Positions 1 through 15,825 are shown, counted from the stretch's first letter. The stretch: DNA of 15,825 nt from an uncultured Nitrososphaerota archaeon (GCA_964480775.1 CAYZRF010000032.1:1-15825); one strand, 5' to 3'. Numbers and translations: made by a program. Notes: generated from the sequence alone by a model not told the origin.

Positions 1-572
1 TAGTCGACGATTACGGAAGAACCAATGATCCCGACGTGTTTGCTGTAGGAGATTGTGTTGAAAGGAGAGATTTCATCACAGGAAGCTGCAGAAGTGTAAT
101 GCTTGCTTCATTAGCATGCAGGGATGCAAGAGTAGTGGGAAGTAATCTTTTTGAGATGAAAAGACTAAGGAGAATAGTTGGTGACTACCCGATTTTTTCA
201 ACGATAATCGGTGACACAGCGTTTGGGTGTGCAGGGTTAACTGAAAGACAGACAAAGGAGATGAAAATAGAAGTTGTGAGTGGTGAATTCTTAACAGTGA
301 ATCGACACCCTGGTTGTCTCTCTGACGCAAAACAGATTAAAATCAAACTTTTGTTCGATAAGAAATCTCATCTGCTTTTAGGTGGTCAAGTGAGTGGAGA
401 CAAAGCCGTGGCAGAGATAACTAACTTAATAGGTGTTGCATTACAGGCAAAGTTCACTTGTGAGGACATCTATTTGATGGAAGTAGGAACACACCCCATG
501 CTAACTTCTTCGCCCATCGTTTATCCCGTCATTAAGGCTGCAGAGGACGCTTTAATGAAACTTAGCGCCTAA
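1..572 (+). CDS. C-terminal part of an FAD-dependent pyridine nucleotide-disulfide oxidoreductase (NADH oxidase / CoA-disulfide reductase-like). The 5' end lies outside the window.
   Basis: The frame is open from position 3 (VDDYGRTNDPDVFAVGDC...), so the GTG at 36 in the ORF track is not the real start. The TxxxxxFAxGD FAD-binding motif is followed by a typical dimerisation-domain length. Stop codon TAA at 570-572. Confidence 0.85.
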   Translation, partial: VDDYGRTNDPDVFAVGDCVERRDFITGSCRSVMLASLACRDARVVGSNLFEMKRLRRIVGDYPIFSTIIGDTAFGCAGLTERQTKEMKIEVVSGEFLTVNRHPGCLSDAKQIKIKLLFDKKSHLLLGGQVSGDKAVAEITNLIGVALQAKFTCEDIYLMEVGTHPMLTSSPIVYPVIKAAEDALMKLSA

Positions 573-1272: not shown

Positions 1273-1428
1273 TTACTTAGGCTCCTCTTCCTTGCTTCTC
1301 GCCAGCTCTATAAGCCTCCTTATTATGTCATCGTAGGTCTCCCCCTTCTTTCCAAGCTCCTTCAGTATCTCCCTAGTCTCCTTCGATATCTGGATTGTCG
1401 TGAGTTCCTTCCTGTCCTTGGGCATCAT
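1273..1428 (-). CDS. 51-aa ribbon-helix-helix (CopG/VapB-antitoxin-like) protein. Absent from the supplied ORF track, presumably because it is below the length cutoff.
   Basis: Manual translation gives MMPKDRKELTTIQISKETREILKELGKKGETYDDIIRRLIELARSKEEEPK*. The pattern is a beta-strand (TTIQIS) followed by two helices, as in RHH folds. ATG ATG at 1428-1423, TAA at 1275-1273. An A/T-rich TATA-like element (GATTTAAAATC, 1448-1458) lies about 25 nt upstream. Confidence 0.6.
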   Translation of the reverse strand: MMPKDRKELTTIQISKETREILKELGKKGETYDDIIRRLIELARSKEEEPK

Positions 1429-1526: not shown

Positions 1527-1840
1527 ATGGGGCTAATGCCTGAAAGCCTCAAGGACCCAAAGACCACGCCTGGAGGTAGAAGGATACCACATGACCTCCG
1601 AGTAGAGCTTTACCATTTCGTTAGAGAGCTAAACAAAAGCGGGATCGGCTACAGAAGGATCCAGAAGATCGTGGTGGAAAGGTATGGGGTCTGGATAAGC
1701 AGATCTAACATCTCCTACTGGGTTAGGGGCATGCACACTCCAGAAAGGGAGCCGTACAACAAGCCAGACTTCTCAAAGCCGGAGATGGCTTGGATAGCTG
1801 GCATGCTTGCTGGAGATGGATCAATAAAGGTGAACAAGAT
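1527..1840 (+). pseudogene. 5' fragment of an HTH plus LAGLIDADG-type homing-endonuclease-like gene, truncated about 4 codons after its LAGLIDADG motif.
   Basis: It has an N-terminal HTH-like segment (IGYRRIQKIVVERYGVWISRSNISYWVRG) and the motif AWIAGMLAGDGSI (LAGLIDADG type). After about nt 1840 the 158-aa ORF-track reading only runs antisense through the 3' end of the next gene (low-complexity FFLCASLPLRLSSSS). G+C also drops sharply at that point. Confidence 0.6.
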
Positions 1841-2827
1841 TCATAGGAACTTTTCCAATGAAGTTGTTTTCTTATATCGTGTGCCTTTTTTTCTTTGTGC
1901 TAGTCTTCCTCTTCGTTTAAGTTCAAGTTCTGCACTCTTCCGGATAAAAAAACCTAGGAAATCTGGTGCTCGTATGTACTTCTTAGGATTAAGGAAAATT
2001 TGATTCCTTCCTTTGTCCCATTTTAGAATTTTTAGGTCTTCTAAAAAAACCAGGGCTTTATTTAATTCACCTTTTGTTAATTGAGCTCTATCTTCAGACC
2101 CTTTAGCCAATCCAGCTATCCAAGGGGGATATAATGAGTTGAAGGCTTCTAAAATTATATCATAGTTAATAGGACTTTTGGGAGACAGTGGATCTTGCAA
2201 TGCTAGAATTATTTGATATACTCTTACCACAAGATAAGGAAGGGGTGGCCTACTACGAACTAACTGATATTTGAACACATCATCAGGAAGAGGTTCGTTA
2301 TTTGCTTCCAATAGTTGCATTAATCTTCCGTCAGAAATTTTTCCATAGATTTTTTTAGAAGAAACGTGCTCGTTCAGACTGTACTTATAGAGGGCCAAAG
2401 AACCTTCTTTAGGTGTTATTGATGCTATTAATTTGACGAAGATCTTCGAAGAACTCTCATGAACAAGGCCAACAACTTCTACAAAGACTTGCTTATCTTG
2501 ATTTGGTAGGGTATAATCGCCTAAATATCCAAGTATATCTTCAAGCTCTTTTTTGAGAACAAATGTATCTTTGCTTCTTGTTCCTTTATGTTCAATAGCT
2601 GTAAAAAGGTTTTCTTTAAAGTTCTGGACAAAAATATCTGGTTCCTTTTTATCGCCTTCTACTTTTGTAATTTTTGGCTCTATTCCTACTACAAAATCCT
2701 TGTTCTTCTCAATTTTTTTCTTAAAGAAGAAGAATAATCTTACTTTCTCCTGATACTGCTGACATTTTTTTCTTATTCTTTCAATTTCCTCATTGAGTAG
2801 ATCCCGTGACACCTTCTGACCACCCAT
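1841..2827 (-). CDS. Hypothetical protein B (about 328 aa). Predicted PD-(D/E)xK nuclease core with an N-terminal coiled coil, a C-terminal winged-helix-like segment and a basic tail.
   Basis: The motif E52 (GIEPKI) ... P65-D66 (EPDIFVQ) ... E81-H-K83 (TAIEHKG) is encoded at nt 2680-2585, with spacing like Hjc-type and restriction-endonuclease cores (PDIIAL..IEVK). The C-terminus has LTKGELNKALVFLEDLKILKWDKGRNQIFL plus KRRGRLAQRKKGTRYKK. The ORF-track start at 2833 is TTG, and I prefer the ATG at 2827. It overlaps the upstream gene by 38 nt. Confidence 0.7.
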   Translation of the reverse strand: MGGQKVSRDLLNEEIERIRKKCQQYQEKVRLFFFFKKKIEKNKDFVVGIEPKITKVEGDKKEPDIFVQNFKENLFTAIEHKGTRSKDTFVLKKELEDILGYLGDYTLPNQDKQVFVEVVGLVHESSSKIFVKLIASITPKEGSLALYKYSLNEHVSSKKIYGKISDGRLMQLLEANNEPLPDDVFKYQLVRSRPPLPYLVVRVYQIILALQDPLSPKSPINYDIILEAFNSLYPPWIAGLAKGSEDRAQLTKGELNKALVFLEDLKILKWDKGRNQIFLNPKKYIRAPDFLGFFIRKSAELELKRRGRLAQRKKGTRYKKTTSLEKFL

Positions 2828-3860
2828 GTTCAATTTTCGCCTGAGGAAATGTAGTTGTTATGATTTCGTCCAAAAGAGATAAGCTCATTGGGGTTGCTCT
2901 AAGAAACGGAATGATTTTTATTTCATCTTCATATATGAAGATGTCATATGTGCTTCTATCTTTTTTATCGGTAATAGCTAACCAAGCCCAAGGGTTTTCT
3001 CCAAATTTTGACATTATCCAGAAGTTACTTTTGAGAAAGTTAACAAAAGTCCTAATATTATCGCTAGACAGCTGAAAATCTCTTATTTTGTATGTAATAG
3101 GGAATATTTGAACTTCTTCTCTAATGATCTTTCTTTCTTTATTAGAAAATCCTATCATGTTTTGGTATGCTATTTTGAGATAAGAATCTATAAGAAGCCT
3201 AATGACCTCGAACAAACACTCTTGAGAACCCCCGTAAACAGTTATACTACCATCACGCCTTATTCTAACCTCGAATAGAACTTTTCCTTCGCTCAAATAA
3301 TCAAATAATAGAGCTTTTAGGCCAGCTTTCTCTCTATTTAATAATTCCTGCATCTCTTTCCGTGAGTATTCTTTTCGACCCCATTTTCTTGTTGTTTCCT
3401 TCCTTGCATAGGAAAAGAGAGTAAATTCTCTAATAAGAACTTTTGCAGCGTTTTCTGTCAACTGATCAATAAGAGAAAGAAGTTGTGGGGTCTTAATTCT
3501 AGCTCTTGCAAGAAGCGGGTACGAGTTGTATAAAAAGGAGGATGCAATGCTTCTTATATTTTCCTGTTGTCCCGTTCTTTTTGGTAAAAAGAAGCGCCAA
3601 TGTGTTTCATAAGGTATCAGGTAACCACTAATTTCTCGTACGTATCCTCGTAGTTTTACTTCATAGGTTTCTTCCGCAATTTGTAGATAGTTAAACCTGT
3701 CTCCTTTTTCAAGTGCTGATTCTAATAATTCATGAAATGTCTTTACGTTGTTACCTATTCTTTTATGTGGAAAGGCAAGAAAAATATGAACAGAAGACAA
3801 ACTTCCTGTTATTAGACCAGCGTTAAGATCGCTTAGTACTTGCCATGGAGTAGGGCTCAT
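2790..3860 (-). CDS. Hypothetical protein A (356 aa), with no domain I can recognise. First gene of the AT-rich two-gene cassette.
   Basis: Long uninterrupted ORF with ATG at 3860-3858 and TGA at 2792-2790, on the same strand as gene B and overlapping it. An A/T-rich upstream region (3861-3900) contains TATA-like strings. One weak D...E-x-K-like string (AITD...YEDEIKIIP) near the C-terminus is not enough for a call. Confidence 0.7.
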   Translation of the reverse strand: MSPTPWQVLSDLNAGLITGSLSSVHIFLAFPHKRIGNNVKTFHELLESALEKGDRFNYLQIAEETYEVKLRGYVREISGYLIPYETHWRFFLPKRTGQQENIRSIASSFLYNSYPLLARARIKTPQLLSLIDQLTENAAKVLIREFTLFSYARKETTRKWGRKEYSRKEMQELLNREKAGLKALLFDYLSEGKVLFEVRIRRDGSITVYGGSQECLFEVIRLLIDSYLKIAYQNMIGFSNKERKIIREEVQIFPITYKIRDFQLSSDNIRTFVNFLKSNFWIMSKFGENPWAWLAITDKKDRSTYDIFIYEDEIKIIPFLRATPMSLSLLDEIITTTFPQAKIEHGWSEGVTGSTQ

Positions 3861-3980
3861 TTTTGTGATTCATATAATACGAAATGTTAATACTAAAAAT
3901 TACTGATGAAATGAAAATTGGCCTGCCTCTTCTTTGGAGATAAAGACACCTTAAGTATGGCGCAGCCACACATAGAGAAC

Positions 3981-4345
3981 CTAAATCAATTTAGTTATCT
4001 CAGTTTTCAACAGGCTATAATCTCTTTCTAGAATCCTAGTAGTCCGCTCCTAAAGTATCCAGACCATCCTAATTTGTTCTTTATGAAGCTAAGCTTAGGC
4101 ACCAAAGGCTTAAACTCCAGATACTTCTTCTCCCAAAAGGGCTTAAGCCTAACCCTATTTGGGTATAAGCGGTCCTTGAATATCCTCTCGCTACTCGTAA
4201 ACGGATCCGATACAACCTCAAAAAGCCCTACAATTCTGATTGGAATCTTCTTATCCTTAATACCTCCTGCATTAGGTAAATGAAGGCCTTAGTTCTCCTT
4301 AAGACTCCTTGAACCATCAAAATCTAGCTCTAAAATCTTTAGAAC
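3981..4345 (-). pseudogene. Degraded inverted paralogue of the EVE/PUA-like gene at 14587-15021. It has at least 2 frameshifts, an internal deletion of about 27 nt and no start codon.
   Basis: Manual reverse-strand translation gives three fragments. They are ..KAFIYLMQE / GIKDKKIPIRIVGLFEVVSDPFTSSERIFKDRLYPNRVRLKPFWEKKYLEFKPLVPKLSFIKNKLGWSGYFRSGLLGF* / RILERDYSLLKTEITKLI*. They lie in three different frames and align with the intact protein. The ORF-track entries 4074-4283(+) and 14715-14927(-) both begin MFFMKLSLGTKGLNS because each is the antisense reading of one copy. Confidence 0.75.
4074..4114. repeat. Left arm core of the inverted repeat: 41 nt exactly reverse-complementary to 14887-14927.
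   Basis: TTGTTCTTTATGAAGCTAAGCTTAGGCACCAAAGGCTTAAA is the reverse complement of TTTAAGCCTTTGGTGCCTAAGCTTAGCTTCATAAAGAACAA. This was compared by hand, and the flanking bases mismatch on both sides. By eye the surrounding ~300 nt are about 80-85 percent identical. Confidence 0.9.
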
Positions 4346-4394: not shown

Positions 4395-6029
4395 ATGAAC
4401 TACGAAAATCACAAGGAGGAAATCAGCAAGACCCGAGAGCCTAGATGGCTAAGATTTGATGAGAGGGGCTTAAGAATCCTTGTTTATGGTTCATCGCTGC
4501 TTTGGTTCCTTCTAGTGATTTTGATTTGGAGGATAAGGCTGTCATTCAGTCTTAGTAAGGACGACTTAGGAGTAATAAGCCAGGTAACGGGCGGTTTTGC
4601 TGCCATATGTTTTGGCTTAATAGGTTTGGATATCATAAAGAGGGATAAATATGGCTTGCTTAGTTCCCTGATCCTTTCTGCTTCGTTCTCCATGACCTCA
4701 TTCCTCTCGCTTCTGACTGAGCTCAGGTTTTCTCCAGGAGGATTGGCTATCATAGACTTTGAAGCTGTCTTAATAGTTGGGATATGGTCGCTCGTTTGCT
4801 TAGTTCTGGATGCAGTTTCTCGGATCTTTAGAAGACGAAGGACAACGAGGATCCGAGAACCACCTGTTGTCTGGATGCTTCAGCCAATACTCGTTGGAAT
4901 ATCGCTAATAAAGCAAAGAACCCTTCTTCAAGGGGTTCTAACCCTATTGGTTGGATCAATCTCGTACTTCATAGGTTCTATCTTGGTTCTCTCTTGGCTT
5001 CTATGGAGAACAGCTGGTATGGATCTGGCGGGCAAAGTGTTAGATATTTTGAGCGAAGGATGGAGAAAACCAATGAGAGCAGGAGATATATTTGCTGAAC
5101 TCCAGTTGAGGGGAATAACCACGACACAGGAGAAAGTGCTCGAGGCTTTGGAGGTTCTAGTTGAGGAAGGAATAGTGACTGAGATTAGACGGGGAGAGTA
5201 TGCAATAGCGCCAGACCTACATTTCCTTAGGAGATCGTTTGAAAACGACGTTATCATTATGCCAGCTGAGTACGATGATGAAATGATTGCAAATCTATTG
5301 AAAATTGATGTTCTTTTGTTTAAGAGATATATAAGTCCAGCATTAAACGAGGTTTTTAGATCGCGCAGAAGCAGGAATTACTACTGTTTCTTGGGCGTCA
5401 AAGTAGCCAATCTTCCTCCAAGAGAAAGACTTAGAAGAGCAAAGTACACAGTTGCCCTTTCAGAGTCAGAGATCTTCTATGGCTCACCATGGGATATGGA
5501 AAGCAAGTTCCTTGAAAAGGTATTGAAGTTTGAGATCCCAGAGGAACTAGATTCCATATCCAAAGTTGTTGAAGAGATTGGTAAGTTTCTCGAGAAAGAG
5601 GTGAAGCACGATCCGAACGAAGGTCCTGTTACGTGCATCTGTTCACCAAAAAAGCATTTCTTACTCATGGATGATTCAAATATGCTTACTGTCGAATTTA
5701 TGCTCTTATTGCTCCCTTTCAATGTTCTCTTAAAATCTGAAAAGATCGCTTCACTCCTCCTTAAAGAGGAGCCAGCCTATAGACTTCTAGAATTTGTATT
5801 TGAATATTTTCATAAAAACAACATCATGCTACTTGAGATTAAATGGACAAGAAGTTTATATGAACCAGAATATAACAGAGTAACCGTTGGTCTAGTGGAA
5901 GATATCCATAATCCTCCTGTTAGAGCAAGAGAGATTTCCTGCAAGGGGGTTCCTAGCAACTGCGAGATTAGATTAAGGGAGATACTACTGGAAGTTATTA
6001 GGGAAGAGTCAACGGCGCCAGATCCATGA
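4395..6029 (+). CDS. Orphan membrane protein (544 aa): about 6 N-terminal transmembrane helices, a cytoplasmic winged-helix domain, and a C-terminal domain of about 270 aa with unknown fold.
   Basis: Hydrophobic segments lie at about aa 28-45, 60-81, 88-107, 117-141, 158-172 and 177-204. The wHTH-like segment RAGDIFAELQLRGITTTQEKVLEALEVLVEEGIVTEIRRGEYAI is at aa ~228-271 (nt ~5076-5210). The long ORF has coding-like composition. I cannot name any homolog. Confidence 0.75.
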   Translation: MNYENHKEEISKTREPRWLRFDERGLRILVYGSSLLWFLLVILIWRIRLSFSLSKDDLGVISQVTGGFAAICFGLIGLDIIKRDKYGLLSSLILSASFSMTSFLSLLTELRFSPGGLAIIDFEAVLIVGIWSLVCLVLDAVSRIFRRRRTTRIREPPVVWMLQPILVGISLIKQRTLLQGVLTLLVGSISYFIGSILVLSWLLWRTAGMDLAGKVLDILSEGWRKPMRAGDIFAELQLRGITTTQEKVLEALEVLVEEGIVTEIRRGEYAIAPDLHFLRRSFENDVIIMPAEYDDEMIANLLKIDVLLFKRYISPALNEVFRSRRSRNYYCFLGVKVANLPPRERLRRAKYTVALSESEIFYGSPWDMESKFLEKVLKFEIPEELDSISKVVEEIGKFLEKEVKHDPNEGPVTCICSPKKHFLLMDDSNMLTVEFMLLLLPFNVLLKSEKIASLLLKEEPAYRLLEFVFEYFHKNNIMLLEIKWTRSLYEPEYNRVTVGLVEDIHNPPVRAREISCKGVPSNCEIRLREILLEVIREESTAPDP

Positions 6030-6282: not shown

Positions 6283-7122
6283 CTAACTTAAAGACCCTGC
6301 GATTGACCATTCAGCATCGAATTTCCGTTCAAAGTCTTCTATCTCCTTTTTTCGGTATAGTAAACTATATCTCGATATTTTCTTTCCCATATCTTTGAAG
6401 GAATGGCCGAAGTGGTAATACTCACATCTATTGACCACGATAAATCGGTCATGGTAAGCCCAACTAAACTTTATCTCTAGCTTATTTGAGACTCTTCTTA
6501 TTTCGCTAAGTTTTCTTTTATACTCTGGCTTCATTCTTGGGCTAGTTAGAACCTTAACCGATGTTCTCGGAGATGTGTATGAAATTAGTTGGAGCAAGGT
6601 GTCTGGATCCAAGTATGGATCTATGAGAATGAGCTCCCTGTCAGCTCTTCCTATCAAGGACTTTAGAGAAATTTGCCCTTCGGTCGGGATTAAAGACGAA
6701 GATACTAATTTTTCTGTGAGTCTTACTCTGGGAGCTTCGCCTCGTAATACATTGAAGGTCTTTCTGAAGATCGACTCCTCATCAAAGTAAACGATAATCT
6801 CAAATTTTCCATATTCTTGGAATAGCCAACGTATTGGAATGGCTACTACAAACATCTTATCTTTGTCTATCTCTCCTTCGATCTCTAGAGTAAACTTCTT
6901 GTCCTCTATTATTCTGTCGTTTTGATCTCTATATATAAGACGAATGGAGGTTCTCTTCAGCTCCCTGATACCAAAACTTCCCTCCATCACGATGTGTGTT
7001 TCCAATGTGTAGGATGTCTTATCAATTGCTATTTGATCTCCTGGATTATAGCCAATTAAGGTGAGTTTGTTGTACTGGCTTAGTTCAATCTCATCGCACA
7101 GATAGATTCTATGAACTTCCAC
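6283..7122 (-). CDS. Orphan two-domain protein (279 aa): a beta-rich N-terminal domain of unknown function and a C-terminal phospholipase-D-fold-like domain with an H-D-R variant of the HKD motif.
   Basis: The C-terminal half reads ELILIDPYLDPDTL...VKVLTS...WAYHDRFIVVNRCEYYHFGHSFKDMGKK. The HDR codons are at 6453-6445. The order H-x-(K->R)-x4-N ... G-x-S-x-x-D mirrors the HxK(x)4D...GSxN order of PLD/Nuc-type domains and of the non-catalytic MIT_C-type PLD fold. The start is GTG at 7122 with no clear RBS, so the start position is uncertain. Confidence 0.7.
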   Translation of the reverse strand: MEVHRIYLCDEIELSQYNKLTLIGYNPGDQIAIDKTSYTLETHIVMEGSFGIRELKRTSIRLIYRDQNDRIIEDKKFTLEIEGEIDKDKMFVVAIPIRWLFQEYGKFEIIVYFDEESIFRKTFNVLRGEAPRVRLTEKLVSSSLIPTEGQISLKSLIGRADRELILIDPYLDPDTLLQLISYTSPRTSVKVLTSPRMKPEYKRKLSEIRRVSNKLEIKFSWAYHDRFIVVNRCEYYHFGHSFKDMGKKISRYSLLYRKKEIEDFERKFDAEWSIAGSLS

Positions 7123-7556: not shown

Positions 7557-9323
7557 ATGGACTCGAGCATAAGATGGGATCTGGTCAGTAAGCTAGATGA
7601 TTGGGTGAGAAAGCGCTATCTAGTGCTTATTAAGGAGCTTGGAGGCGAGAAATTTACGGTAGAAGAAGCCGAAGAGGTGTTAAGGAGGCGAGATCTGGAG
7701 ATAGAGAACATTAACAAGTTGATCTCGGCGCTCGTTAAGGCGAGACTTGTTAGGACAGAGATGGACCCGAGGGATTCAAGAAGAAGGATCTATAGCTTCA
7801 TTTTGCCCACAACCCTCTCTGTCGAGACTAAAGCCCCAGGAAGGGATGAGTTGATAAGGCTCCTAAAGAGCGGCGCGGACCTAATTAGGACCGCTGTCGA
7901 TTATAAGGTCCTCCTCCTCTTCCTCTTCTACAAAGTCGTAAGTGATAAGTGGAACAGGATAGTGGAGAAATATGAGAGAGAGGGTTTCTCAAAAGAAGAA
8001 GCTTATCTCCTAGCAAATAGCGAGTACTTGATCCTTTACGATGAGAAAGAGGGTAAATTATACAGTTGGGATGAGGTCACGAGGAGCAGGGAGACGATCA
8101 AGGAGATAGCTAACGCGATAATCAAGATATCAAGGATGAACGAGGGTCTCGGAGACTTGCAGAAGCTCGTCGAGGTCCTAGGGTTCCTAGGGTTCATAAC
8201 CGAGGACAACATGCACTTATTGGAGGGTCTGGTTCAGCTCTTCAACAAGTATGACTTCGTAGATGTGGATTACGACGCAATTGGAGACGCTTATCAATGG
8301 ATTCTTTCTTATTTTGCACCAGAGAGGGCAAAGGAAGGGGAGACTTACACTCCAAGAGAGGTAATTAGGCTCATAGTTAAACTGCTTGACGCAGAAGATG
8401 GGAGCAGGGTACTTGATCCTGCATGTGGATCAGGAGCAATGCTCATAGAAACTTATAACCATGTTAGGGAAAAGCTAGGGGGCAGAAAGCCTTCTTTAGA
8501 ACTGGTTGGACAAGAGAGAAATGAGATTATGGCCATCATAGCTAAGATGAACCTAATTCTTCACGGAATCGATGGCTACGAGATTCATCTGGGAGACAGT
8601 CTTACTAACCCTAGGTTCGGGAAGGCCGATTATGTGATAGCTAACCCTCCGTGGAACCAAGACGGCTATAGCGAGAGCAACTTGGGAGATCCTACGGTTA
8701 GGAGAATCTATACAAGCTTTGTTTCCAACGGCTTCCCTCCAAAGAGCAGTGCAGACTGGGCCTGGGTTCAGCTGATGCTATATCACACTGAGAAAAAGGT
8801 TGGAATTGTGTTGGATCAGGGAGCCCTTTTCAGAGGAGGAAGGGAGAAGAGGATAAGGAGAGCAATTGTAGAGAAAGATCTCATCGAAGCCGTGATTCTG
8901 TTGCCTGAAAAGCTCTTCTACAATGTGCAGGCTCCTGGAATAGTTATGATTCTGAACAGAAATAAGCCCGAAGAGAGAAAGAATAAGGTTCTCTTCATAA
9001 ATGCATCCCAGGAATATGAGAAGCATCCAGAGATAAGAAGACTGAACATACTTGGCGAAAAGAACATAGAACGAATCGTTGACGTCTATAAGAATTTCAA
9101 GGACGTGGAAGGATTTGCAAAAGTTGTCCCCATTGAGGAGATAAAGGAGAAAGACTACAACCTGAACGTAACTCTTTACGCGTTTCCTGTTGAGGAAATT
9201 GAAGAGATCGATTTAGCTGAGGAGCTTAAGGAGTTTCAAGAAATTGAGCAAAGAGAGAAGGAAGCCATAGAAAGAGCAGTAAGGTATGTGAGGGAGATCT
9301 TGGAGGTGATAGGAGATGAGTAG
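7557..9323 (+). CDS. hsdM: Type I restriction-modification system, N6-adenine DNA methyltransferase subunit (588 aa), with an extra N-terminal MarR-like winged-helix domain.
   Basis: The HsdM_N-like helical region is [27 protein letters not shown]. AdoMet motif I is [12 protein letters not shown] (nt 8415 onward). Catalytic motif IV is NPPW (nt 8643-8654). The first ~95 aa ([51 protein letters not shown]) form a wHTH-with-wing pattern that precedes the usual HsdM N-terminus. The stop overlaps the hsdS start by 8 nt. Confidence 0.95.
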
Positions 9324-10596
9324 GTTCTACAGAGAGACAGGATTCAAGAAAACAGAGATAGGAGAGATCCCTAAAGAGTGGGAGGTTGTTAGACTCAAAG
9401 AAGTCGCAAGGATAAGAAGAGGGAGAGTTCCTAGCAATGTCAGCAAGATAGCCTTCATTCCAATGGAGTTAATCCCAGACGATCATATCTATGTGAGTTT
9501 TAGAATGCGAGAGATAAAGGATGTAAGTAGTTATACATACTGTGAAGCAGGAGATTTGCTATTGGCCAAAATTACGCCTTGTTTGGAGAATGGAAAGCAA
9601 GGAATAGTCCCTGAGGATGTACCTCATGGTTTTGCACTCGCTACCACAGAAGTCTATCCGCTAGTTAGTAATGTACAGAAAATTCACAAGTTATTCCTAT
9701 TTTATACACTAAAATTTTCCAAATATAGAAGAATATTGGAATTTTCAATGAGAGGAACAACAGGCAGGCAGAGAGTTCCAAGAAGCGCTGTTGAAAACTT
9801 AATCATCGGCCTTCCCCCTCTTCAAGAACAGAAGAAGATAGCTGAAGTGCTCTCAGCCTTAGATGAAGCCATCCAAACGATTGATGAGGCTATAGCGAGG
9901 ACAGAGCGCCTGAAGAAGGGCTTGATGCAGGAGCTTCTAACAAAAGGGATAGGGCATAGGGAATTCAAGGAGACGGAGATAGGAAGGATACCAAAGGAGT
10001 GGGAGGTTGCTAAAGTCAAAGATAAGTTTTACGTTGAAACCGGTACCACACCTTCCACAAAGAGGAAGGAGTATTGGGAAAATGGGGTAATAAATTGGTT
10101 CACACCAATTGATTTGAGTAAGTTAAACGGAAAGATGTTCTTAGAGGAAAGTGAGAGAAAAATAACTAGAAAAGCTTTAGAGGATGCTCACTTGACGGTC
10201 ATTCCTAGAGGATCTATCTTAATTTCTACCCGAGCACCAGTTGGGTATGTAGCTGTACTGAAGAAAGAAGGCGCCTTTAATCAAGGCTGCAAGGGATTAG
10301 TACCTAAAAACCCACAAGAAATATGCTCTGAGTTCTATAGTTATTATTTTACCAGTATAAGGCGTATACTAGAGAGCTTAAGCGGCGGTAGCACCTTTAA
10401 AGAACTTTCAAAGAAAATGCTTGAAAACCTCGTCATCCCACTCCCACCAATCAGAGAGCAGAAGAAGATAGCTGAGATTCTCCTGACAATTGATGCAGTC
10501 TTAGAAAATAAGAGAAGGAAGAAAGAGAAGCTTGGGAGAATGAAGAGAGCGTTGATGAACCTCTTATTGACCGGGAAGGTGAGAGTAAGAACATGA
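9316..10596 (+). CDS. hsdS: Type I restriction-modification system, specificity subunit (426 aa, two target-recognition domains).
   Basis: Classic internal duplication. [19 protein letters not shown] (nt 9343-9399) matches [19 protein letters not shown] (nt 9964-10020). [21 protein letters not shown] (nt 9811-9873) matches [21 protein letters not shown] (nt 10441-10503). Two dissimilar TRDs lie between these conserved helical spacers. The stop overlaps the hsdR start (ATGA, 10593-10596). Confidence 0.95.
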
Positions 10597-14024: not shown

Positions 14025-14399
14025 ATGAACAGAGAACACATAACAAGGATGCTAGAGGAGCTCAAGACTATGCTAGGTATAAAGGAGAAGGTGAAGTTAG
14101 AGCTGAGACCTCTTAAGACGAAAGCAGCTTCGGTTTCCTTAAAGAGGAACGTCATCAGGCTGAGCAAGGGTGTAGTTTCAGGGCTAGATGAGAAACCGGT
14201 GAGGTACTTGATACTGCACGAGCTAGTTCATCTTAAGCTGAGGTCGATTCACCACACAAATGATTTCTACAGGATGGTCCACAGCATAGTTAAGGAGGAG
14301 GAAGTTAAGGAATTCGAGGAAGATATAATAGCAAAGCTCATAGAGTTGAATAGTAGAGGAATCAAGGCAGTAATTGATCGCTCAGGTACACCTTTTTGA
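14025..14399 (+). CDS. Short DUF45/YgjP-like (M48-type) zinc metallopeptidase-fold protein (124 aa), last gene of the type I RM operon.
   Basis: The HExxH motif sits in YLILHELVHLKLRSIHHTNDFYRMV, preceded by the ..VSLKRNVIRLSKGV.. segment typical of DUF45 proteins. The ATG at 14025 directly follows the hsdR TAG (14022-14024). DUF45 genes are a known frequent neighbour of hsdR. Confidence 0.8.
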   Translation: MNREHITRMLEELKTMLGIKEKVKLELRPLKTKAASVSLKRNVIRLSKGVVSGLDEKPVRYLILHELVHLKLRSIHHTNDFYRMVHSIVKEEEVKEFEEDIIAKLIELNSRGIKAVIDRSGTPF

Positions 14400-14586
14400 C
14401 ATAGGTCGATGAAGTGTTTCTCAAAAGGATTTCAGAATTGCAAGGGCTGAGAGTACTTCCATCATATTCTTCTCAACAATCGATTGCTTTTTCTCAGATT
14501 CCTTTTCTTGACCTTTTCAGCATAATTTGGCTTTAATTATTAGAATCCAGAAAAATCTTAAATGAATTCAGAACACAGTGAATGAG

Positions 14587-15021
14587 ATGTCTTACTGGAT
14601 CTTCGTAACCAACGAGCAGAACTGGAAGGTCGTAAAGGAGAAGAACGTATGGGGCCTGCCAAAGGGAAGGGAGAACTCTATAAAGAGGGTGAAGAAGGGG
14701 GATAAGGCCTTCATCTACCTAATGCAGGAAGCAACAAAGGATAGGACTATTCCAACGAGAATAGTTGGTCTTTTTGAGGTCGAATCGGATCCATTTACGA
14801 GTAGCGAGAGGATATTCAAGGATCGCCTATATCCGAATAGAGTTAGGCTTAAGCCAATTTTGGTTTTGGAGAGGAAGTATTTGGAATTTAAGCCTTTGGT
14901 GCCTAAGCTTAGCTTCATAAAGAACAAGTTAAGATGGTCTGGGTACTTTAGAAGTGGGCTTGTAAAGATTCCAGAGAGAGATTACAATCTGATTAAAACC
15001 AAGATATCTGAATTAGTCTAA
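14587..15021 (+). CDS. EVE/PUA-like (PH1033-type, YTH-like fold) domain protein, about 144 aa.
   Basis: MSYWIFVTNEQNWKVVKEKNVWGLPKGRENSIKRVKKGDKAFIYL...IVGLFEVESDPF...YPNRVRLKPI matches the EVE-domain pattern: an aromatic-rich N-terminal strand, a GD.a.iY segment and a basic beta-barrel. I prefer the ATG at 14587 over the GTG at 14578 used by the ORF track. A TATA-like CTTAAATG lies about 30 nt upstream. Confidence 0.8.
   Translation: MSYWIFVTNEQNWKVVKEKNVWGLPKGRENSIKRVKKGDKAFIYLMQEATKDRTIPTRIVGLFEVESDPFTSSERIFKDRLYPNRVRLKPILVLERKYLEFKPLVPKLSFIKNKLRWSGYFRSGLVKIPERDYNLIKTKISELV
14887..14927. repeat. Right arm core of the inverted repeat: 41 nt exactly reverse-complementary to 4074-4114.
   Basis: See the left arm entry. 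It lies inside the intact EVE gene. Confidence 0.9.
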
Positions 15022-15061
15022 GATCCTTTTAGCGCGTTAGATTCAATTTTGCGTTATATTC

Positions 15062-15825
15062 TTATCCCTTCTTCGATTTTAGTCCCTTCTCACCGGTCTT
15101 CTCCTTGAAAACTTCTCTTATTAGATAATTTACCATGAGATAAACTAAAGGAGCTGTGATGAACCATAGAAGGGGAAACTTCATAGGAAGGAGATAATCT
15201 TTTAGACCTTCAATGCTGGCCACTATCTCATCATCGCTCCAAAAGAATGAATTCCAGGAAATAGTGCTAAATAAGGATGAGACTGAGAGAATTAGCTTCA
15301 GTCCTCTCTTAACAGAAATTTTTGGTATTGAAAGGGTATGGAGAAAGCAAAGAAAGAGAGTAATTCCTGCTGCAATGAACCATCTGATCCTTAGAGAGTC
15401 ATATCTGCCGAAAGCTACTCTGAAAAGCAGAACTTTGTTGGGAAAGAGGTCCTTTCTTCTGAAAAAGTAGATATTTTCAGATTCTCTAAAGAATGGCATG
15501 ATATCTTGGCTCTTGATATTTCTACCCTCGATCTCGAAAACCGTCGGAGTGAAGGTTCCATTGTACAGAAGCTTGAAGTTCTTAGGCAATTCAACCTTCA
15601 AAATTCCGACGCTGCCATTAAAATGAGGAATAATGAATGAGTAGTAGTATATTTGAAAGGGAAATTTGTTCATAGTGTTCTGCTTCTTCAAAGGATAAGA
15701 AGCGGGCGCTACCTTAACCATAAAGCAAAATTCAGAGATATTTCCACTCTCTGATGGCTCTGGTTCTACTGCTACATTGACATAATACAATCCTGTCTCT
15801 TTATCAAGTGTAATATTACAGTTCT
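15062..15825 (-). CDS. AT-rich hypothetical membrane protein. The 5' end probably lies outside the window.
   Basis: The ORF-track start at 15790 is TTG, and the frame stays open to the window edge (..NCNITLDKETG-LYYVNVAVEPEP..). A beta-rich N-terminal part is followed by hydrophobic helices (WFIAAGITLFLCFLHTL; LILSVSSLFSTISW; FPLLWFITAPLVYLMVNYLI) and a basic tail. One sampled line (15241-15300) has 20/60 G+C. Confidence 0.6.
   Translation of the reverse strand, partial: NCNITLDKETGLYYVNVAVEPEPSESGNISEFCFMVKVAPASYPLKKQNTMNKFPFQIYYYSFIIPHFNGSVGILKVELPKNFKLLYNGTFTPTVFEIEGRNIKSQDIMPFFRESENIYFFRRKDLFPNKVLLFRVAFGRYDSLRIRWFIAAGITLFLCFLHTLSIPKISVKRGLKLILSVSSLFSTISWNSFFWSDDEIVASIEGLKDYLLPMKFPLLWFITAPLVYLMVNYLIREVFKEKTGEKGLKSKKG

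Follow-up and report, generated by a model that had tools for sequence, protein, structure and literature searches.

A mobile two-gene module pairs a predicted PD-(D/E)xK nuclease bearing a clamp-binding-type tail with an RdgC-like protein

Introduction

In NucS/EndoMS, a nuclease of the restriction-endonuclease fold is joined by a distinct DNA-binding domain and, at the C-terminus, by a peptide that binds the sliding clamp; this peptide takes the form of a PCNA-interacting protein (PIP) motif in archaea and of a clamp motif in Actinobacteria (PMC8228993). Here we describe a two-gene cassette of partly similar design, made up of genes that we call A and B, at positions 1841–3860 of a 15,825-nucleotide stretch of DNA from an uncultured Nitrososphaerota archaeon (GCA_964480775.1 CAYZRF010000032.1:1-15825; the whole stretch, which is a complete NCBI contig, is hereafter called the window). 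B encodes a predicted nuclease of the same fold with its own DNA-binding domain and, judged from its sequence, a terminal peptide of the same type, and like NucS/EndoMS it is spread over archaea and Actinobacteria. Several features nevertheless distinguish the two. No Pfam match links the 45 B family members to NucS, and no NucS chain surfaced in sequence or profile searches of the PDB. The domain order also differs, the nuclease coming first in B and the winged helix after it. Finally, B is rare, mobile and always accompanied by its partner A, whereas NucS is a conserved single-copy chromosomal gene.

Enzymes of the McrC and Mrr type resemble B in other respects. They share the PD-(D/E)xK core and the setting in defence islands, Mrr likewise combines its nuclease with a winged helix, and the profile of the B family aligns to the PD...D-A-K motif of Thermococcus McrC (6ut5_G), its only PDB sequence match for the nuclease. 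However, this match is marginal (E 0.038), no B member matches the Pfam models Mrr_cat or McrC, and A is not an AAA+ GTPase of the McrB type. We know of no clamp-binding tail in McrC- or Mrr-type enzymes. TnsA, too, is a PD-(D/E)xK nuclease followed by a winged helix, and insertion sequence (IS) transposase genes lie upstream of A-B at several loci (L011, L019 and L021–23). Yet no B member matches Tn7_TnsA-like_N, the pair has no conserved transposase partner, and, unlike a transposon, the cassette is flanked by neither terminal repeats nor target duplications. Clamp-binding motifs themselves are reported for many transposases (PMC4549789, PMC3971601).

The nearest relatives of A by fold are RdgC and the RdgC-like proteins of phages, which give its best whole-chain structural matches (probability 0.99–1.0) and are of similar size, about 300–370 residues. 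A nonetheless superposes on them poorly, carries GNP and DxxDGS loops of its own and, unlike RdgC, is always paired with a nuclease gene. The nearest published operon is the RdgC-histone operon of Bacillus and Halobacteria (PMC11390915), which resembles A-B in its divergent RdgC-like protein, its winged-helix partner and its presence in haloarchaea. It differs in having three genes, for a histone-fold protein, the RdgC-like protein and a transmembrane winged-helix protein, and its description mentions neither a nuclease nor a clamp motif.

A nuclease-based accessory module is thus a known kind of system; what is new in A-B is the two families, the obligatory RdgC-like partner and the clamp-binding-type tail. 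In the literature we found no described clamp-dependent defence system and no operon joining RdgC to a nuclease. The reading that we favour, tentatively, is that A-B is a mobile nuclease module, coupled to the sliding clamp and resident in defence islands and on plasmids, which cuts clamp-loaded invader DNA while A gates or directs the nuclease.

Results

Two overlapping genes form the cassette

Both genes lie on the minus strand. Gene A (3860..2790) runs from an ATG to a TGA and encodes 356 residues, and gene B (2827..1841) encodes 328 residues from its ATG, the mechanically called open reading frame (ORF) beginning at a TTG two codons earlier (2833). The genes overlap by 38 nucleotides in different reading frames. 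Upstream of A, the region 3861..3987 (minus strand; about 32% G+C) contains the TATA-like runs TTTTTAGTATTAA and TATTATAT and is the presumed promoter of the operon. An initial annotation of this DNA, made from the sequence alone, had described two overlapping same-strand genes in an AT-rich block, and both observations hold. The G+C fraction of 1841–3860 is 0.350 compared with 0.416 for the whole window, and its flanks have 0.50 (1527–1840, the 314 nucleotides next to the B stop) and 0.413 (4028–4262). Low G+C is not unique to this block, because other parts of the window also fall below 39%, including 6283–7122 (0.388) and 14851–15300 (about 0.36).

B is predicted to be a nuclease with its own DNA-binding domain

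An AlphaFold2 model of B, built on a 45-sequence alignment, has high confidence scores (predicted local distance difference test, pLDDT, 92.5; predicted TM-score, pTM, 0.89) and divides the protein into successive parts. A long helix (residues 8–40) carrying an invariant Y25 leads into an alpha/beta nuclease core (residues 45–136; 2420..2695, minus strand). A mixed middle domain connects the core to a winged helix-turn-helix (residues ~252–279; 1991..2074, minus strand), and the protein ends in a basic helix and tail (residues 290–328; 1844..1960, minus strand), in which the long basic helix spans 290–318.

The putative catalytic residues of B are E50 (2678–2680), P63-D64 (2636–2641) and E79-H-K81 (2585–2593), all on the minus strand. 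Each of these columns is at least 93% conserved across 45 homologs: E50 in 42, P63 in all 45, and D64, E/D79 and K81 in 44 each. In the model strand 1 ends at E50, P63-D64 leads into strand 2 (65–69), and E79-H-K81 closes strand 3 (74–81), which places D64, E79 and K81 inside a restriction-endonuclease-like core. The alpha-beta-beta-beta-alpha-beta core that defines the superfamily is found in the model and is recovered by Foldseek, which matches B in the PDB to PaqCI, the nuclease domains of Can2 and Card1, Bax1, MunI, AF1548 and RecU. The probabilities of these matches reach 0.99; their E-values are modest (best 1.7e-3) because just one domain matches.

The winged helix is modelled as a helix at 252–264 and strands at 268–271 and 276–279. 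An invariant Q249 stands just before it (44/45, as is L262), and the B profile gives weak matches to GntR/FadR winged-helix domains in the PDB. Together, conservation and model make a metal-dependent PD-(D/E)xK DNA endonuclease the best explanation of B, and the model identifies B as a new family within that superfamily, equipped with a DNA-binding domain of its own. The initial annotation had anticipated much of this. The PD-(D/E)xK motif, the winged helix and the basic tail that it named are all supported here; its catalytic residues were the right ones, numbered two too high (E52, PD66 and E81-x-K83) through counting from the TTG; and the N-terminal coiled coil that it proposed is indeed helical, though it is a single long helix.

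In one lineage some copies of B are interrupted. An in-frame stop splits the gene in two metagenome contigs (L034, 5348–6307, and L036, 3726–4589), while a third contig of the same lineage has it intact (L035, 6280–7239). Population-level inactivation of this kind would fit a costly nuclease.

B ends in a clamp-binding-type peptide

The most informative feature of B, missed in the first reading, is a conserved C-terminal peptide of the clamp-binding type. In most B proteins a linker rich in lysine and arginine (29% K+R) leads to Q-x-x-[L/I/M]-x-x-[F/Y/W] at the very C-terminus, as in GQKTLSNF, KQSSLEKF, GQATLSDFF and AQMSLDSF. We scored this motif in the last 16 residues of 49 full-length B members. 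The strict form is present in 28 and the relaxed form [LIM]xx[FYW] in 45, whereas shuffled tails yield the strict form in 0.36 of 49 on expectation and in at most 4 across 1000 trials. Internal 16-residue windows of the same proteins contain it in 6 of 858 cases, and the A family in 0 of 73. The B protein of the window has the relaxed form, TTSLEKFL (1844–1867), modelled at a pLDDT of ~70 as a short helix (324–327) after a linker of lower confidence.

The form of the tail follows the host. The strict motif matches the archaeal PIP-box consensus QxxLxxF (PMC7776575), and the B copies of haloarchaeal plasmids end in GQSSLDDF, SQTSLGQF, TQPTIGEF and SESLESYE. Two Arthrobacter copies carry instead AQLSLFD and EQPSLFD, whose QLSLF and QPSLF match the bacterial beta-clamp consensus QL[S/D]LF / QxxLF (PMC12309361). 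At the level of sequence, the tail thus switches with host domain as expected for PCNA versus the beta clamp. We infer that the terminal peptide of B would dock on the sliding clamp of its host, on PCNA in archaeal copies and on the beta clamp in those of Actinobacteria.

A resembles RdgC and TBP in fold

The AlphaFold2 model of A is likewise confident (pLDDT 91.3, pTM 0.90). Its topology resolves into three beta-alpha-beta4-alpha modules encoded at ~3516–3803, 3150–3512 and 2841–3131 on the minus strand, which profile-profile comparison does not detect as repeats of one another (probability <8%). Searched as a whole chain with Foldseek, A matches E. coli RdgC (2owl) with probability 0.99 at a template-modelling score (TM) of 0.28–0.31, and phage RdgC-like proteins with probability 1.0 at TM 0.31–0.37, the latter with a root-mean-square deviation (RMSD) of 6.9 Å over 334 columns. 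RdgC-type matches as a group align 300–360 columns at an RMSD of 7–10 Å. Single modules match TBP (viral TBPs among them), Iml3 and RnlA. The Pfam model of RdgC has no match in A or in 57 A family members at E <= 0.01.

Conservation in A is concentrated in the third module, at 2907..2996 (minus strand), where N289-P290, D298, D301-(G)-S303 and P318 stand out. The family consensus there is GNPWL..xDRxDGSSFD...VP, and the copy in the window has R302 in place of the G. These residues occupy hairpin loops of the module and form no known active site. A has no recognisable catalytic motif and no AAA+ or P-loop match, in agreement with the initial annotation, which had recognised no motif in it; the library searches returned no match either. 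The description that suits A best is that of a binding protein resembling RdgC and TBP, with no enzymatic role of its own.

A and B are inherited together

The two genes make up a single operon, obligate in its pairing and inherited as one. Loci were gathered starting from A, from B and from further A members. In the window and in 30 fetched loci with clear profile matches to both families, A is followed directly by B on the same strand, and six divergent plasmid loci have the same arrangement. The sole exception among the fetched loci is L024, whose record begins inside the pair. The distance from the A stop to the B start ranges from -23 to +16 nucleotides in the gene calls and is -38 in the window. 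Moreover, the divergences of the two proteins track each other, their pairwise identities being correlated at r = 0.959 across 19 non-redundant pairs (Mantel test), a value that 0 of 2000 permutations reached. The co-occurrence of A and B, on which the initial annotation had staked its proposal of a system, is therefore well supported.

The plasmid clade comprises loci from Halosegnis marinus (L001), Arthrobacter sp. J3.37 (L002), Haloarcula marismortui pNG100 (L003), Arthrobacter sp. NicSoilB4 (L028), Natrinema sp. DC36 (L029) and Halosimplex aquaticum (L030). The A profile recovers their A-like genes at 1e-45 to 1e-64. The genes downstream are homologous to B by profile comparison (hhalign probability 97.7%, E 2.5e-12, 274 columns) and also by hidden Markov model (HMM) search and tblastn.

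No third conserved partner gene recurs across the loci, barring a gene of about 450 codons upstream of A in two haloarchaeal plasmids (L029, 3422–4807; L030, 3446–4768). The two copies, of 440–461 residues, lie directly upstream of A on the same strand, belong to no family that we recognise and share 25% identity (E 9e-50). None of the other loci has this gene, which might serve as a third component within that subclade.

Two rare families outside the catalogues

A and B are two families not previously described: no curated family, PADLOC model or paper that we found covers the pair. Neither protein has a match in Pfam, NCBIfam, PHROGs, PADLOC (PADLOC-DB v2.0.0, 0 matches) or the sequences of the PDB, and 102 family members searched against Pfam and PADLOC gave only scattered single matches at chance level. 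The initial annotation could assign neither protein to a named family, and these searches agree; they also returned no housekeeping, plasmid-replication or viral structural family for either.

A word-seeded search over 5.8 billion clusters brought back nothing beyond the two proteins themselves, and the resulting picture of A and B as orphans was overturned by an exhaustive HMMER search. In that search, phmmer with A and B concatenated as the query against 1.84 billion representatives found 124 proteins, of which 73 match A alone and 51 match B alone (queries included), which leaves 72 A-like and 50 B-like cluster representatives as relatives. Identities are 21–33%, with E-values down to 2e-36. 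The relatives are all named 'hypothetical protein' or unnamed, their 90% clusters hold 1–14 sequences each, and most come from metagenomes only. Named sources are metagenome-assembled genomes (MAGs) of Bathyarchaeia and one of Methanomethylicia; the Methanomethylicia member came from a profile search of clusters, which added at least this one among 8000 candidates. IMG/VR and a phage collection contained no relative of A or B. A tblastn search of plasmids with B found nothing, and the plasmid clade was reached through A instead.

The initial annotation had placed the DNA in a Thermococcales setting, for which we find no support because the flanking protein at 569–919 has a counterpart of 90% identity or more in a Korarchaeota/Thermoproteota MAG. 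The host probably belongs to Korarchaeota or Thermoproteota. The relatives of the cassette itself are Bathyarchaeia, Methanomethylicia, haloarchaeal and Arthrobacter sequences.

Restriction systems and mobile elements recur around the pair

Restriction-modification (RM), Mrr or Hma genes lie within ~6 kb of A-B in about 8 of 25 independent loci by raw count. They are varied in kind. The pair is found with hsdMSR plus Mrr (L012), with hsdM right after B (L024), and 107 nucleotides after an hsdS-hsdR-YgjP series running in the same direction (L034–36). A methyltransferase, a ResIII helicase and a TnsA-like nuclease stand directly upstream in L033. Other loci have a methyltransferase plus helicase (L002), an HmaB-like DUF1156 methyltransferase (L001) or an Mrr/UPF0102-like gene (L016/L026). 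Besides the IS transposases mentioned above, neighbours related to mobile elements include an integrase (L013), a terminase (L032) and ParA/ParB (L028, L029). Plain housekeeping genes surround the pair in L005, L009 and L037.

The A proteins of the RM-linked loci share a mutual identity of just 24–29%, so the association with RM genes spans deep lineages and is either old or recurrent. The frequent RM neighbours of A-B are suggestive. The initial annotation had noted a type I RM island beside the pair at this one locus; the association with RM genes, other defence genes and mobile elements is seen again in deep, independent lineages.

The flanks of the cassette in the window

The initial annotation saw the cassette as wedged between two broken genes, which is partly right. 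On the B side, a truncated ORF (1527..1840, plus strand; ORF 1527–2003) converges on the B stop, with its plausible coding part ending within a few nucleotides of that stop. It has weak matches of the helix-turn-helix (HTH) kind, a LAGLIDADG-like 'MLAGDGS' string and no significant family match; a LAGLIDADG reading finds no support in Pfam and was set aside. The remainder of this ORF was not found on the far side of the cassette. On the A side lies an EVE pseudogene (3988..4291, minus strand), a 5'-truncated and prematurely stopped copy of an intact EVE gene at 14578–15021 (Pfam EVE, 6e-17). The fragment at 4031–4261 has no Pfam support of its own, and its assignment comes from BLASTP against the intact copy of the window, to whose residues 54–129 it is 86% identical. 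At the nucleotide level the two form an inverted repeat (3988–4291 / 15014–14703; 83% identity over 312 nucleotides by blastn). The part missing from the pseudogene is its far end, away from the cassette. Neither repeats (direct, inverted or terminal) nor target duplications were found around the cassette, and a tRNA is likewise lacking. Clean insertion is thus not demonstrable, for want of flanking repeats, a tRNA or the remainder of the truncated ORF.

Beyond the EVE pseudogene the order is a gene for a 544-residue protein, a DUF6941/PLD-like gene, hsdM, hsdS, hsdR, a YgjP-like peptidase gene and the intact EVE gene. The initial annotation had placed the type I RM genes directly beside the cassette, but they begin at 7557, which is 3.7 kb away with two genes between. 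The EVE arms bracket a 10.4-kb segment that holds everything from the 544-residue gene to the YgjP-like gene, with the PLD-like gene and hsdMSR between them. Recombination between the arms would invert this segment and yield hsdMSR-YgjP-EVE-A-B in a single direction, which apart from the EVE gene would equal the arrangement of L034–36.

The gene for the 544-residue protein (4395–6029, plus strand) is a cluster of one with no family match. By eye, the protein has several N-terminal segments that look membrane-spanning, a winged-helix-like part at ~215–275 and a long C-terminal part; RdgC-histone operons likewise include a transmembrane winged-helix protein (PMC11390915). Next to it, 6283–7122 (minus strand) encodes 279 residues with an N-terminal DUF6941 (E 1e-5); the C-terminal part resembles PDC-S05, a PADLOC candidate (E 6e-19), and the N-terminal domain of NCBIfam VPA1262. 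It is thus a further candidate defence gene, situated between A-B and the hsd genes. Within hsdS, a 60-nucleotide direct repeat (9342–9401 / 9963–10022; 82% identity) is probably the usual duplicated conserved region between two target-recognition domains. The YgjP/SprT-like metallopeptidase gene (14025–14399, plus strand) encodes 124 residues covering 113–194 of the 207-position Pfam model; its equivalent after hsdR in L034–36 has 187 residues, so the copy in the window may have lost its N-terminal part or have merged with the end of hsdR.

On the other side of the cassette, a 51-residue ORF (1276–1428, minus strand) matches DUF7557 (E 1e-9) and the VapB antitoxin family (E 1.6e-4) and by its sequence looks like an antitoxin; no toxin gene was recognised adjoining it. 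At 36–572 (plus strand) lies the C-terminal part of a flavoprotein of the CoA-disulfide reductase / NADH oxidase type, which probably runs past the start of the contig, and together with 569–919 it looks like ordinary host flank. Rfam has no match in the window.

Discussion

How could the parts of A-B work together? In the reading that we favour, the winged helix of B would bind DNA while its basic linker and terminal peptide tether it to a loaded sliding clamp. A would bind DNA or B and would gate or direct the nuclease. B would then cut where a clamp is loaded, on the replicating or nicked DNA of an invading element, and A-B might back up neighbouring restriction-modification systems. A-B has the patchy, mobile distribution of a small accessory module that moves horizontally; clamp binding, the role of A and the defence function are what we infer beyond this. 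The initial annotation had likewise hypothesised a defence module, and the support that this idea gains here is genomic association.

Several observations weigh against the favoured reading. First, no PADLOC model matches either family, the proximity of RM genes is a count with no background rate and hence no enrichment statistic, around half of the loci have no defence gene nearby, and some pairs sit between housekeeping genes (L005, L032, L037). Second, the clamp link has weak points. The B protein of the window lacks the Q of the tail motif, the bacterial form of the motif comes from just two related Arthrobacter plasmids, and the peptide could dock onto A instead. To our knowledge, moreover, clamp-binding nucleases are repair and replication enzymes and not defence proteins. 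Third, the superposition of A on RdgC is weak (TM 0.28–0.37) and a relation in sequence is undetectable. Fourth, the catalytic residues of the plasmid clade are degenerate: the B-like gene of Haloarcula pNG100 (L003, 5741–6871) has PT for PD and no (D/E)xK, those of Arthrobacter (L002, L028) have E-I-A at the motif, and those of Natrinema (L029) and Halosimplex (L030) have A-K-V/I. The terminal clamp-type motif is kept in all plasmid-clade copies with a degenerate nuclease motif. Some A-B pairs must therefore work without cleavage, and non-defence readings stay open.

A more specific form of the favoured reading is possible, if doubtful. Here the host clamp itself would be the platform or signal of an immune module: B would ride the clamp on a replicating invader, and the RdgC-like A would encircle or read the DNA and license the cut. 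Such a system would be independent of methylation and could form a second line behind type I restriction.

A-B might instead be an accessory, clamp-coupled module of repair or recombination, in which B, in the manner of PCNA-bound NucS/EndoMS, Hjc, XPF and Fen1, cuts a particular lesion, a mismatch or a branched intermediate at the replication fork, and the RdgC-like A binds DNA and then modulates recombination. A C-terminal clamp motif is a hallmark of archaeal replication and repair proteins, and NucS makes the same archaeal/actinobacterial switch of motif. The best whole-chain folds for A are RdgC proteins, and RdgC is, in the account cited within PMC11390915, a DNA-binding ring protein that modulates RecA. 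The pairs among housekeeping genes would fit as well. Nevertheless we consider this account unlikely, given how rare and patchy the pair is (124 representatives among 1.84 billion proteins, in clusters of 1–14 members). Its G+C is atypical, plasmids carry it, and IS elements, an integrase and a terminase adjoin it. This rarity and mobility, the RM adjacency that recurs in deep lineages and the nonsense alleles of B are not expected of a core repair pathway.

Selfish maintenance is another explanation to which we give little weight. B would be a toxic nuclease and A its neutraliser, so that a cell losing the operon dies, as in addiction by type II toxin-antitoxin or RM systems, or the pair would help the element that bears it to replicate or partition. 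Six plasmids carry the pair, ParA/ParB genes and record starts lie close by in L003, L028 and L029, the tightly overlapping genes are translationally coupled, the bare two-gene unit moves into unrelated sites, and B is inactivated in some populations, all of which such a role would accommodate. However, A is as large and as conserved as B, unlike small, labile antitoxins, and no autoregulatory DNA-binding domain was recognised in its 356 residues. Chromosomal copies between housekeeping genes would have no use for a plasmid replication function, and clamp-binding tails are not known from the toxins of toxin-antitoxin pairs.

Least probable of all, A-B could be a back-up arm of the adjacent RM system, silenced by or cooperating with the RM complex and firing when that complex is blocked or stalled at a fork, by a logic comparable to that of PrrC, an anticodon nuclease whose gene lies within type Ic hsd loci; the co-directional position after hsdS-hsdR-YgjP (L034–36), the places after the methyltransferase-ResIII-TnsA-like operon (L033), after hsdMSR plus Mrr (L012) and before hsdM (L024), the low mutual identity of RM-linked A proteins and the single-direction order that inversion between the EVE copies would create in the window all point that way, but most loci have no RM genes in their available flanks, the adjacent RM systems differ in type, and co-location in defence islands explains the pattern without functional coupling.

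A-B joins three features not reported together before: a restriction-type nuclease, a clamp-binding-type tail and an obligatory RdgC-like partner. Cultured carriers exist in Haloarcula marismortui (pNG100), in Natrinema, Halosimplex and Halosegnis plasmids and in Arthrobacter plasmids, which makes genetics feasible. If the clamp link is true, A-B would be a mobile accessory nuclease tied directly to the replication machinery, and it could serve immunity, inter-element competition or fork-associated repair.

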